From an uncultured Sphingomonas sp. (GTDB lineage Bacteria > Pseudomonadota > Alphaproteobacteria > Sphingomonadales > Sphingomonadaceae), in assembly GCA_913775975.1 (NCBI GenBank), contig CAJYLQ010000048.1, positions 1,292-65,291 of the forward strand: 64,000 nucleotides of DNA, in the 5' to 3' direction. Below are positions 31,875 to 38,507 of this stretch, piece after piece (positions within the stretch are counted from its first letter, which is position 1; every line of letters begins with the position of its first letter). The translations under genes and the position numbers were made by a program. The notes beneath the pieces are model-generated. The model did no database searches. It was given only the letters and a program-made list of their open reading frames with translations, and had not been told where the DNA came from.

Positions 31875-32573
31875 CTAGCGGCAGAAATGCGCGTCGTCGT
31901 CTTCCAGATGCAGATGGTTGCGGTGCGCCGCGTTGTAATCGGGCGACAGGACGGTGCCGTAGCGCTTGCAGGCGGAGGCGTGGACCACCTTCAGAAAGCG
32001 CTGGATCGCCGGATCGGGGTTCGTCCAGTCGTTCAGGATGGTGATCCGCCGCCCGTCCTTCAGCACGAAGCCGCCGATATCCACCGCATTGGCCAGCGCA
32101 TGGCCCGACCGCCGGTCGCCCATGCCGCGCGTGCCGACGATGTTGCGACAGGCATAGGTGCCCATCCCCTCGATCCGCGCGAGCGGCGAGCCGAGGATCT
32201 GCCACGCGGCCGGCGCCACCGCGTTGCGCACCCAGGTGGCGAAGGCGCGCGCGTTGCCGCAGCGCATCGCGGTGACGCCGGTGACGGGCACGCCGATATC
32301 GGTCAGCTGCACCGCGCCGTACAGGCCGCAGCCCTGGCCGAAATCCTGCGCGGGCAGGATGCGGAAATCGACGCCCTCGCGGCGCAGGTCGGCATGGCAT
32401 TGCGCGGTTTCGCCGGGCGGCGGCCGCAGCGGTTCGCGCGTCACGAGCGGGGGATGCGGCGCGGGCGAACGACCACACGCGGCGAGCATCGCCAGCATCA
32501 GTCCCGTCGCGATGACCCTCGGCCGCCCCACGGCGACCCTTGTGCGCAAGGCGGGGACCCGCGGGCAAGCCAT
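31875..32573 (-). CDS. Extensin-like C-terminal domain lipoprotein
   Basis: [32 protein letters not shown]; start uncertain. Confidence 0.85.
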
Positions 32574-32647
32574 ATCCGTCCGACGATTCGACCGACTGGT
32601 CCGATTGTCCGGCTTGCCAGCGCGGCGCTTCCCCATTAGGGCCGCCG

Positions 32648-32698
32648 GCGGGCCACGCCGTCCCAACGCGGCGCGCGCTCTCTGTGAGGAGAGATACA
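32648..32698 (+). promoter_or_regulatory. Candidate serC leader RNA
   Basis: Downstream of TTGCCA-N17-TAGGGC; stems CGCCG/CGGCG (32656-32673) and CTCTC/GAGAG (32678-32693), the last overlapping the RBS as described for the alphaproteobacterial serC leader. Confidence 0.5.
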
Positions 32699-33853
32699 TT
32701 GACGGATACCGCCACCGCCCCTGACGTGCAGGGTGCGCAGAAGCCGACCACCAAGCCGGCTCGTCCTTTCTTCAGCTCCGGTCCCTGTGCCAAGCCGCCC
32801 GGCTGGGATGCGTCGAAGCTGGCCGCCGCGTCGCTGGGCCGCTCGCACCGGTCGAAGATCGGCAAGACCCGCCTGCAATATTGCATCGACCTGATGCGCG
32901 AGGTGCTGGGCCTGCCCGATACGCACCGCATCGGCATCGTCCCCGGTTCCGACACCGGCGCGTTCGAGATGGCGATGTGGACCATGCTGGGCGCGCGCCC
33001 GGTCACCGCGCTGGCCTGGGAAAGCTTTGGCGAGGGTTGGGTGACGGATGCCGTCAAGCAACTGAAGATCGATCCCACCGTCGTGCGCGCCGATTACGGC
33101 CAGCTGCCCGACCTCGACGCGATCGACTGGTCGAACGACGTGCTGTTCACCTGGAACGGCACGACCAGCGGCGTGCGCGTGCCGAACGCGGACTTCATTC
33201 CGGAGGACCGCGAGGGCCTGTCCTTCGCCGATGCCACGTCGGGCGTGTTCGCCTATGACATCGACTGGGCGAAGATCGACGTCGCGACGTTCAGCTGGCA
33301 GAAGGTGCTGGGCGGGGAGGGCGCGCATGGCGTGCTGATCCTCGGGCCGCGCGCGGTCGAGCGGCTGGAAAGCTACACCCCCGCCTGGCCGCTGCCCAAG
33401 GTGTTCCGCCTCGTGTCCAAGGGCAAGCTGGCCGAGGGCGTGTTCAAGGGCGAGACGATCAACACGCCGTCGATGCTGGCGGTGGAGGACGCGATCTTCG
33501 CGCTGGAATGGGCCAAGGGCTTGGGTGAGGGCGGGCTGATCGCGCGCTCCGACGCCAATGCCGCCGCTCTGGACGCGATCGTCGAGGCGCGCGACTGGCT
33601 GGGCCATCTGGCCGCCGATCCGGCGACGCGGTCCAGGACCAGCGTCTGCCTGACCGTCGCGGGCGCCGACGAGGCGTTCATCAAGACGATGGCCGGCCTG
33701 CTGGAAAAGGAAGGCGCCGCCTACGACGTCGCGGGATATCGCGATGCGCCGGCGGGCCTGCGCATCTGGTGCGGCGCGACGGTGGACACCGCCGATATCG
33801 AGGCGCTGGGGCCGTGGCTCGACTGGGCCTACGCGACCGCCAAGGCGGGCTGA
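32699..33853 (+). CDS. serC: Phosphoserine aminotransferase
   Basis: [39 protein letters not shown]; TTG start after GAGGAG. Confidence 0.95.
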
Positions 33854-33864
33854 ACCCCTGACTT

Positions 33865-33959
33865 CGTCATTCCCGCGAAGGCGGGAATCCATACACGCAA
33901 GGTCGTCGAAAGAGCCGCTGCACCAGCGGCTATGGATCCCCGCCTTCGCGGGGATGACG
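33865..33959. repeat. Palindromic repeat family B copy between serC and serA
   Basis: CGTCATTCCCGCGAAGGCGGGAATCC...GGATCCCCGCCTTCGCGGGGATGACG. Confidence 0.9.
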
Positions 33960-35571: not shown

Positions 35572-35604
35572 TGAAAGCCCCCTCCCCGGCGGGGAGGGGT
35601 TTCA
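35572..35604. terminator. Hairpin/terminator after serA
   Basis: TGAAAGCCCCCTCCCC-ggc-GGGGAGGGGTTTCA. Confidence 0.55.
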
Positions 35605-35646
35605 AGGCTCTCGTCAGCGCGTCCGCTCCCCGCTATTCCCCCGCCC

Positions 35647-36753
35647 ATGACCCAGTCCGGCCTGCTCCCCGAAGGTTTCCACGACCGCCTGCCGCCCGCC
35701 GCGGATATCGCCGCCGCGATCGAGGCGCGGGTGCTGGAGGCGGCGCGGGGGCATGGGTATGAGCGGGTCGATCCGCCGCTTGCCGAATATGCCGACGAGC
35801 TCGCCGCCCGGCTGAAGGCGGGCGGGCTGACCGATGCGGTGCGCTTCGTCGATCCGGTCGGGCAGGCGACGCTGGCGATCCGGCCGGACATGACCGCACA
35901 GGTCGCGCGGATCGCGGCGGTGCGGATGGGGCACCATCCCCGGCCCGTGCGCCTGTCCTATGCCGGCTCGATCCTGCGGCTGCGCGCCTCGCAACTCGCG
36001 CCCGCGCGCGAGCGGCGGCAGGTGGGGGCGGAACTGATCGGCCTCGATTCGGTCGATGCCGCCGCCGAGATCGTCGGCGTCGCGGTGGAAGGTCTGGCGG
36101 CGGCGGGGATCGCGGATGCCTCGATCGATTTCACGCTGCCGGATCTGGTCGATGCGCTCTCCGCCGGGCCGCTGCCGGTCGCGGCCGACGCGATTGCGGC
36201 GCTTCGCGAGCGACTGGACGCCAAGGACGCCGGCGGCGTCGCGGCGATCGCGCCCGCCTATCTGCCGCTGGTCGAGGCGGCGGGGCCGTTCGCACCCGCA
36301 ATCGCGCGGTTGCGCGCGTTCGACACGGGCGGCGTCCTGACGCGGCGGCTGGACGCGCTGGAGGCGATCGCGGCGACGCTGCCCGATACGGTCGCGCTGA
36401 CGCTGGACCCGACCGAGCGGCACGGCTTCGAATATCAGTCGTGGCTGGGTTTCTCGCTGTTCGCGGCGGGCGCGGCGCGCGAGCTGGGGCGCGGCGGCAC
36501 GTACCAGATCGTCCATCCCGATGGCCGCGAGGAGCCGGCGACGGGCTTCTCCCTCTATGCCGATGCGCTGTCGGCATCGGGCCATGCGGGCGAGCGGCGG
36601 CGGCTGTTCCTGCCGCACGGCACGTCGCCAGTGGAGGGCGCCCGACTACGCGCCGAGGGCTGGGTCACGGTGCGCGCGCTGGAGCCGTCCGACACGCCCG
36701 CCGCGCAGCTGGCGACGCATATCTGGCGAGACGGCGCGGCGCACCCGCTCTAG
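35647..36753 (+). CDS. hisZ: ATP phosphoribosyltransferase regulatory subunit
   Basis: LLPEGFHDRLP, RPDMTAQVAR, QVGAELIG, GGTY; hisZ-purA context. Confidence 0.92.
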   Translation: MTQSGLLPEGFHDRLPPAADIAAAIEARVLEAARGHGYERVDPPLAEYADELAARLKAGGLTDAVRFVDPVGQATLAIRPDMTAQVARIAAVRMGHHPRPVRLSYAGSILRLRASQLAPARERRQVGAELIGLDSVDAAAEIVGVAVEGLAAAGIADASIDFTLPDLVDALSAGPLPVAADAIAALRERLDAKDAGGVAAIAPAYLPLVEAAGPFAPAIARLRAFDTGGVLTRRLDALEAIAATLPDTVALTLDPTERHGFEYQSWLGFSLFAAGAARELGRGGTYQIVHPDGREEPATGFSLYADALSASGHAGERRRLFLPHGTSPVEGARLRAEGWVTVRALEPSDTPAAQLATHIWRDGAAHPL

Positions 36754-36854
36754 GAAAACCGTACCGCCGCCAAGAACGCCCGTGACATGGGTGAGAGATA
36801 GTCCCTAACACGGCCGATGGCGGCATCTCGCCGTCGATCCAATGGGAGACAGCC

Positions 36855-36947
36855 ATGTCGTTTGGTGATGTGTGCCTGTTCCTAGCGGCGCTGTTCGCGT
36901 TCGGCACTCTTCTTTTGAAGGTGGTCGAAGTGGCGCGCCACAAATAG
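36855..36947 (+). CDS. Unannotated 30-aa single-TM peptide, putative type I toxin (MSFGDVCLFLAALFAFGTLLLKVVEVARHK)
   Basis: SD GGGAGA 5 nt before ATG; hydrophobic core then basic C-terminus; 55% GC (51/93); below ORF-track cutoff. Confidence 0.75.
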   Translation: MSFGDVCLFLAALFAFGTLLLKVVEVARHK

Positions 36948-37051
36948 GCAACCGGGCGGGGGCGCGTTGCCGCGCGTCCCCCAAACGATTGAACCCCCGC
37001 CATTGCCGTGGCGGGGGTTCATCCAATGGCTCAGCCATATCGTTTGGTGCC
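36942..37051 (-). ncRNA. Putative antisense antitoxin sRNA
   Basis: Starts just downstream of a minus-strand promoter; 5' 29 nt complementary to the toxin SD/ATG region via a direct repeat; contains 13-bp hairpin 36990-37021; 3' end uncertain. Confidence 0.6.
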
Positions 37052-37055
37052 TTCT

Positions 37056-37084
37056 CATATAGCCTCATACCTTCTCACGCGCAA
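37056..37084 (-). promoter_or_regulatory. Sigma70-like promoter for antisense RNA
   Basis: TTGCGC (37084-37079) -N17- TATATG (37061-37056), preceded by GC as in the alphaproteobacterial GCTANA -10. Confidence 0.65.
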
Positions 37085-37103
37085 TCACCCCGGCTGAACG
37101 CGA

Positions 37104-37132
37104 TTGACCTCTCCGCCTCGTCCAGCTACCCG
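37104..37132 (+). promoter_or_regulatory. Probable purA promoter
   Basis: TTGACC-N17-TACCCG (GCTA). Confidence 0.5.
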
Positions 37133-37217
37133 CGCCCCCGACATTCCTGAACCGCCCGCGTGCCGAGTCCTGTCGAAGGGCGCGCGGGTCCGTAGCGGCA
37201 GGCGGGGAATTGCATCC

Positions 37218-38507
<1,290 letters not shown>

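Follow-up and report, generated by a model that had tools for sequence, protein, structure and literature searches.

The closest described system is the par locus of the Enterococcus faecalis plasmid pAD1 (Fst/RNA II), the mechanism of which is reviewed in PMC7472228; in that account, loop–loop contact at the 3′ hairpins is proposed to start pairing. The Staphylococcus aureus pairs SprA1/SprA1AS and SprA2/SprA2AS are similar to the model proposed below for the locus studied here in that the 5′ end of a 3′ antisense RNA acts in trans on the ribosome-binding site, but their toxins are of the Fst family, their 3′ ends overlap and the descriptions consulted contain no twin-loop code (PMC8167048, PMC6393307). 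TxpA/RatA, SprG/SprF and Hol_Tox (PF16935) share with our peptide a length of about 30 amino acids, one hydrophobic helix and a basic C-terminus, whereas the antitoxins of TxpA/RatA and SprG/SprF are described as pairing via overlapping 3′ ends (PMC2887945, PMC6393307). As outlined in PMC8594479, the antitoxins of TisB/IstR-1, ShoB/OhsC, Zor/Orz and DinQ/AgrB act in trans via a separately encoded complementary stretch, as is proposed below; however, their small RNA genes lie 5′ of the mRNA, whereas the predicted one of the present module is 3′ and convergent. In the T1TAdb description a 3′-convergent antitoxin layout is given for Gram-positive families only, and the portion consulted of the survey by Fozo et al. 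(2010) gives, for the four sphingomonad genomes covered, a count of zero type I loci from known families. The five sphingomonad candidates in its Table S8 (34–66 amino acids, with other neighbours) are unlike the present family as far as their description goes, by which alone they were set apart, and the consulted parts of PMC5961336 and PMC10903887 hold nothing specific to it. No account of a sphingomonad type I system or of a twin-loop code was found in the literature searched, with subscription journals mostly outside its scope.

The window, a 64,000-nucleotide stretch of DNA from an uncultured Sphingomonas sp., carries between hisZ and purA a module of approximately 330 bp which consists, in this order, of a 5′ hairpin, the gene of a 30-residue transmembrane peptide, a pair of hairpins called HP1 and HP2, a duplicate of the translation-initiation region and a conserved opposing σ70-type promoter (Table 1). 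A consensus promoter and terminator scan gave no match at the module, and an Rfam scan of 36500–37400 gave nine matches up to E 10, none of them near its gathering score; the best, ftsZ-DE (30.3 of 72.2 bits), was taken as a chance hairpin likeness.

Table 1. Features of the module and its flanking genes, in positions of the window.
Feature	Position	Strand	Details and basis
hisZ-like gene, upstream context outside the module	35647..36753	+	ORF; PF13393, E 1.5e-74
Candidate weak σ70-type promoter of the peptide mRNA	36782..36811	+	GTGACA–18 nt–TAACAC; predicted
5′ hairpin of the mRNA	36816..36835	+	Consensus 6-bp stem, 64 loci
Translation-initiation region, predicted small-RNA target	36837..36867	+	Shine–Dalgarno sequence GGGAGA 36844–36849, ATG 36855
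Peptide P0001, putative type I toxin	36855..36947	+	30 amino acids, single hydrophobic helix, basic C-terminus; ORF, dN/dS, structure model
HP1, predicted to stand at the 3′ end of the active mRNA	36953..36987	+	10-bp GC stem 36958–36982, loop TTGCCG 36967–36972
Predicted antitoxin small RNA	36984..37049	-	About 62–70 nt; ends estimated
HP2, predicted to end the small RNA as a 3′ hairpin or terminator	36991..37020	-	12–13-bp stem, loop hexamer 37003–37008
Copy of the initiation region	37021..37049	-	Minus strand gives anti-Shine–Dalgarno/anti-start seed and small hairpin; alignment, fold, co-variation
Antisense promoter	37056..37084	-	-35 TTGCGC (37084–37079), 17 nt, -10 TATATG (37061–37056); family alignment
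purA, downstream context	37218..38507	+	PF00709, E 2.6e-170

On sequence grounds the peptide ORF is a real gene under purifying selection, with a dN/dS of 0.24 (631 non-independent pairs of at least 80% identity). A DNA search matched only two of 60 relatives, one of them spuriously, and the peptide search was the productive route, matching 144 of 400 other genomes of the genus. From the 160 matched places 130 were taken (30 including the own locus, plus 100), giving 131 profile matches, and 128 loci after the removal of three rows without a start codon; the named relatives belong to Sphingomonas, Novosphingobium, Sphingobium, Allosphingosinicella and Stakelama. The peptide has 29–31 residues in 125 of the 128 loci, the best 19-residue hydropathy is at least 1.99 in all 122 distinct members (122/122), and the AlphaFold model of P0001 is a single helix of residues 3–29 (pLDDT 93). 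The window peptide has no Pfam match and no member of this main subfamily exceeds a Pfam or NCBIfam cut-off or matches the Fst or Ldr families; Hol_Tox is touched by three of 69 members, below the cut-off, with a best E of 0.027. The nearest entry in the Atlas is an unnamed cluster of 114 members, followed by Hol_Tox clusters at 0.89, which is a lead only. At the order level the peptide profile matched six of 250 genomes, and neither the peptide nor the RNA family was found outside the sphingomonads among the order-, class- and phylum-level genomes searched. The downstream RNA part is retained at five loci at which the ORF has decayed through a lost start, a frameshift or a lost stop (L091, L137, L139, L109 and L113). 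In Novosphingobium colocasiae (L148, 1445–1500) the peptide ORF and the RNA part are intact, and the upstream 5′ hairpin and Shine–Dalgarno sequence are replaced by unrelated sequence.

The 5′ hairpin shows at least one two-sided change at each of its six stem pairs among 64 loci. A conserved stem sequestering the Shine–Dalgarno sequence was not seen in the main subfamily, the consensus hairpin of these 64 loci ending before that sequence; such a stem is usual in potent type I toxins. A long-range mRNA switch, in which a CCAAACG linker would pair with codons 2–4 or with the copy, was found in the hisZ–purA clade only and was rejected as a general feature. By eye, NTGACA…TA with similar spacing recurs in the hisZ–purA clade, and the sense promoter is weakly conserved family-wide.

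A sequence-only reading of this DNA had described a second copy of the ribosome-binding region downstream of the peptide gene, and both strings are indeed present at 36837–36867 and 37021–37049: nine identical nucleotides are followed by GAGA against CT (a 2-nt gap and two mismatches) and then by 17 identical positions out of 18. The differences fall, as had been observed, on the Shine–Dalgarno sequence and on the start codon (ATG at 36855–36857, ATA at 37037–37039); the antisense UAU still offers AUG two Watson–Crick pairs and one G:U pair, and folding confirms the ATGGC-tca-GCCAT hairpin on the antisense strand. With the same local-alignment scoring applied to the 260 nt beginning 90 nt downstream of each site in the genome with a Shine–Dalgarno sequence and ATG, the repeat score of 41 was reached at four of 4654 sites, the present site included (mean 21.5). 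Throughout the family the copy is recognizable, exceeding the 99th percentile of shuffles in 116 of 128 loci. The co-variation among homologues to which the reading had looked is found: the alignment score of an initiation region with its own copy averages 33.4, versus 19.2 with non-cognate and 16.7 with shuffled copies.

The minus strand has, behind the copy, a family promoter consensus of TTGAA-N17-TATNTA, the 17-nt spacer being chosen in 114 of 128 loci; TTGA occurs within the expected minus-strand window in 110/128 loci versus 4/88 control windows, and in 110 of 127 the distance from the end of the -10 box to the anti-start codon is 14–16 nt. The antisense promoter of the window itself is under the threshold of the consensus scan. 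The predicted small RNA would have 57–80 nt across the family, mostly 60–66, and that of the window folds at -34.2 kcal/mol (z -4.7); its 3′ end had been placed near 36942, and 36984 appears more likely. The duplex of the first 34 nt of the small RNA with the initiation region is predicted at -39.7 kcal/mol for cognate and -21.7 kcal/mol for non-cognate partners (-48.6 in the window). An mRNA finds its best partner in the cognate small RNA in 74 of 126 loci, and has it among the top five in 109, the former number being limited partly because close kin have common seeds. From the minus-strand promoter at a fixed distance, the co-variation and the cognate duplex, it is very likely that the copy is an antisense seed that blocks initiation, as the sequence-only reading had proposed. 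The four RNA runs used, from a list of 24 in which none had half of the query words, gave coverage on hisZ and purA of other strains, which does not address expression of the module.

The same reading took the copy to be specifically inactivated, and for the start codon this does not hold: the copy has the same start codon as the original in 107 of 128 loci, to which three apparent one-base register slips of the automatic call may be added, and ATA in only two, so that a selected ATG-to-ATA change was rejected. Within the hisZ–purA clade the change in the Shine–Dalgarno sequence creates the small hairpin and ATG is intact in the copy of six of the seven sister loci; in the seventh (L017) GTG is accompanied by a matching change on the other arm, by which the stem of the 5′ hairpin of the small RNA is preserved. 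Inactivation of the Shine–Dalgarno sequence stands in part, since the copy is weaker than the original by more than 1 kcal/mol in 93/128 loci (in the window, -7.3 in the original to -1.5 in the copy), but 57/128 copies still bind the anti-Shine–Dalgarno sequence at -4 or better. Whether the copy could recruit ribosomes is beside the point; the antisense RNA carries the anti-Shine–Dalgarno sequence. The strand opposite the copy folds more stably than that opposite the original in 91 of 126 loci and less stably in 34, and a role of the copy's differences in shaping the small RNA's own fold would therefore be the better fit. Perhaps they also disable a false start site on read-through transcripts.

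Two hairpins separate the copy from the stop codon; they were found by automatic folding in 126 of 128 loci and by reading in the other two. When 63 diverse loci were aligned, with the structure drawn by hand on the same alignment, 94.8% of the cells of the two stems together were paired, with two-sided changes at 22 of 24 pairs; none of 500 shuffles scored as high in co-variation, and slid controls were 33–50% paired. In HP1, 98.9% of cells are paired, with two-sided changes at 9/10 pairs, and 10 bp are formed in 104 of 126 loci. At its base (36953–36957 with 36983–36987) a purine-rich 3 × 3 internal loop, GGC/AAA or GGA/GAA, is conserved in the form CG-GG(C/A)/(A/G)AA-CG and is closed by pairs which co-vary on the plus strand; this motif could bind a protein or block a nuclease. 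HP1 shows no U-tract bias on either strand. HP2 has two-sided changes at all of its core pairs (10/10); of the 8 nt that follow it on the minus strand 3.6 are U, compared with 1.0 on the plus strand. Since neither hairpin is a canonical terminator in the window, both RNA 3′ ends are estimates.

The loop hexamer of HP2, which reads CGGCAA on the small RNA, is identical to that of HP1 on the plus strand. This identity holds in all 63 aligned loci (63/63), in 14 variants, whereas the neighbouring stem positions of HP1 and HP2 match only at the cross-locus background; thus, the stems are unrelated. An automatic count gave identity in 121 of 126 loci, the misses being four register slips and one true one-base difference between the loops (L122), and at least 6 nt are common to both loops in 125 of 126. 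About 60 changes of the hexamer were counted on a poorly resolved tree of 123 rows. Among close relatives at the same site, both loops are TTGCCG in L011, L014, L016 and L137 and both are the reverse complement, CGGCAA, in L012, L013, L015 and L017. In other genera the twin-loop pattern was seen by eye in 20 of 22 loci, the exceptions being a decayed HP1 (L199) and an HP2 loop longer by one base (L213). Paralogues within the same genome differ in the hexamer in 12 of 12 pairs, as would happen by chance about 20% of the time, and insulation of paralogues by the hexamer was accordingly set aside as not significant. As identical loops on the same strand cannot pair with each other, most of them not being self-complementary, the minus-strand HP2 loop likely pairs with HP1 of the plus strand; that is, the loop of the antisense HP2 likely kisses HP1 of the mRNA. 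The 3′ end of the active mRNA probably lies after HP1, because a permanent overlap with HP2 would free the HP1 loop to drift. One locus (L034) has, directly past its antisense promoter, another pair of hairpins and another copy of the initiation region, with no peptide gene; the extra loops, CTGCCA and CTGGCA, are one base apart, and this is possibly an orphan or decaying antitoxin.

A covariance model built on the hairpin–copy–promoter region of the main-subfamily loci found one full copy in this genome and, within the genus, a divergent sister subfamily (L266 at G302:C1:266649, L268, L271–L277 and L279, with L268 lacking a stop codon). The peptide of this sister subfamily exceeds the Pfam Hol_Tox cut-off (26.7 versus 23.3 bits), and in all ten loci read (10/10) the loops are identical, a copy lies downstream and the Shine–Dalgarno sequence is sequestered by a long, strong 5′ stem-loop. 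The two peptide profiles align weakly (probability 19.9%), and the link between the subfamilies therefore rests on the common RNA layout. A Hol_Tox search of 200 genomes of the genus gave 11 matches, three over the cut-off; all eight that were read are of the sister subfamily (8/8) and the other three lie within long ORFs. Among the plasmid and phage matches listed for the sister peptide, nearly all are staphylococcal and named holin-like toxin, PepG1 or holin, at weak E values of 0.2–8. At the order level the RNA model matched five of 150 genomes, among which L269 is at best a remnant with HP2 only and L267 an unrelated hairpin, and at the class level four of 150, all of which were rejected on reading as unrelated hairpins. 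The sister peptide was found in none of 300 class-level genomes, and no Hol_Tox match over the cut-off was obtained in 250 genomes of the phylum. A scan of viral contigs for the hairpin pattern gave two matches, both dismissed as chance occurrences inside a gene.

By comparison with its relatives, the module at hisZ–purA is an insertion: the gap between these genes is 468 nt in the window versus 34–142 nt in eight of 16 relatives with both genes visible, the other eight having longer, different inserts of about 680–1270 nt (24 other purA loci of the genus were compared, none with the peptide and 16 with hisZ in view). The spacer itself (window 36753–37218; loci L228–L251) has the appearance of an insertion hot spot. 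The upstream region of purA, 37125–37217, is conserved in strains without the module, contigs from RNA of other strains aligning from 37125, and is probably purA's own promoter and leader. Further upstream in the window, a strong hairpin follows serA (35575–35605), and an inverted-repeat-rich stretch resembling a short palindromic repeat element (33860–33935) lies between serA and the ORF at 32540–33853, which from its translation we take to be serC. Over the whole family, 87 of the 128 copies lie tail-to-tail with one gene, presumably a thiolase as read from its C-terminus, eight lie at hisZ–purA, and the downstream neighbours form 18 clusters. Such a concentration, 87 of 128 copies at one chromosomal site, suits a stable resident better than an addiction module. 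A Novosphingobium plasmid also carries a copy, in the neighbourhood of parB and an antirestriction gene; the peptide is unannotated there.

Taken together, these findings make it highly probable that antisense control through duplicated sites operates here, irrespective of any toxicity of the peptide, and in our judgement it is probable, with less assurance, that the module is a type I toxin–antitoxin locus with par-like control, a putative TxpA/SprG-like toxin and a duplicated kissing loop. In the proposed mechanism both RNAs would be made, a strong antitoxin promoter and a weak toxin promoter keeping the small RNA in excess, and the small RNA from the opposing promoter would silence the 30-residue membrane peptide, presumed to be toxic, through two duplicated recognition sites. 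The mRNA would end after HP1 by termination or 3′ trimming, with little overlap, and pairing would occur in trans. By analogy with par, the small-RNA hairpin loop would initially kiss the identically coded HP1 loop at the mRNA 3′ end, and the 5′ part of the small RNA would then pair over the Shine–Dalgarno sequence and the start codon. The loop hexamer and the seed would thus form a private address of each copy.

The same antisense control could instead serve a non-toxic peptide, a small membrane regulator or accessory protein tuned by the small RNA. The absence of a Hol_Tox match over the cut-off in the main subfamily, its unsequestered Shine–Dalgarno sequence, the concentration of copies at one stable site and the purifying selection are all compatible with such a role; however, Hol_Tox peptides occur in the sister subfamily, whose RNA layout is the same, the peptide is patchily present (144/400), with at least 18 downstream neighbourhoods and a plasmid copy, and the RNA part is kept where the ORF decays, so that we consider a harmless peptide unlikely. 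More doubtful still is a purely cis-acting antisense in the style of TxpA/RatA or SprG/SprF, in which the mRNA would read through HP2 and the copy, its perfectly complementary 3′ tail would pair with the small RNA and be cleaved as a double strand, and the repeats would be secondary. Read-through is plausible because HP1 has no plus-strand U-tract, and the toxin class resembles that of SprG, whose antitoxins are described as using overlapping 3′ ends (PMC6393307). Yet neither equal loops nor a repeated initiation region would be required for pairing by overlap, and both persist through many concerted changes; in the three staphylococcal Hol_Tox/PepG1 loci inspected both features are absent (3/3). 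Such a route may nevertheless operate additionally, on a long form of the mRNA.

Very improbable, finally, is the view that the twin loops are protein recognition sites or the ends of a mobile element, such as a hairpin-ended cassette, and that the repeat is a duplication scar. The module does appear to be an insertion in a gap that is short in half of the comparable relatives, but the hairpins lie inside the module and not at its ends, and G:U pairing, together with the purine internal loop, speaks for structure at the RNA level. At least 14 loop sequences, including reverse complements, would hardly be recognized by one binding protein, and the unrelated stems argue against a recent duplication.

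We hold it about evenly balanced whether a further generalization applies, namely that this is a widespread alphaproteobacterial type I family in which what is one shared terminator in par is divided between two hairpins, the twice-written six-letter loop being a fast-evolving kissing address that makes overlap of mRNA and antitoxin unnecessary and provides at least 14 interchangeable lock-and-key pairs. If the toxin–antitoxin reading is correct, type I systems would extend to the sphingomonads, with over a third of the Sphingomonas genomes searched, and the 3′-convergent antitoxin layout would extend beyond the Gram-positive families. The joining of a TxpA/SprG-like toxin to par-like translational control would imply evolutionary shuffling between classes of toxin and layouts of control. 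With the kissing loop present in two separate hairpins, and not in a shared terminator, clean tests of its role become possible by swaps of one or both loops, and the natural set of hexamers would reveal which loops work.

The comparison with known systems leads back to par, the accounts of which (PMC7472228, PMC4147584, PMC8167048) describe a gene for a small hydrophobic peptide, as in the module, with a convergent small RNA downstream of the ORF, as is predicted here. As described there, the blocking seed stems from a directly repeated initiation region that is transcribed in the opposite direction, an arrangement predicted here too, and poorly conserved repeats confer specificity. The consensus of 69 peptide members, however, contains neither tryptophan nor the P/D/S/TxxxG motif of the Fst/Ldr toxins, the host is a Gram-negative alphaproteobacterium, and the main subfamily, in contrast to its sister, has no conserved 5′ stem sequestering the Shine–Dalgarno sequence. 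Whereas par, in these accounts, has one shared bidirectional terminator, the module has two hairpins with unrelated stems and the same loop, which indicates that the complementarity is maintained by selection and not by overlap. The best reading of this analogy is that the module would work like par but is not a member of the par family.
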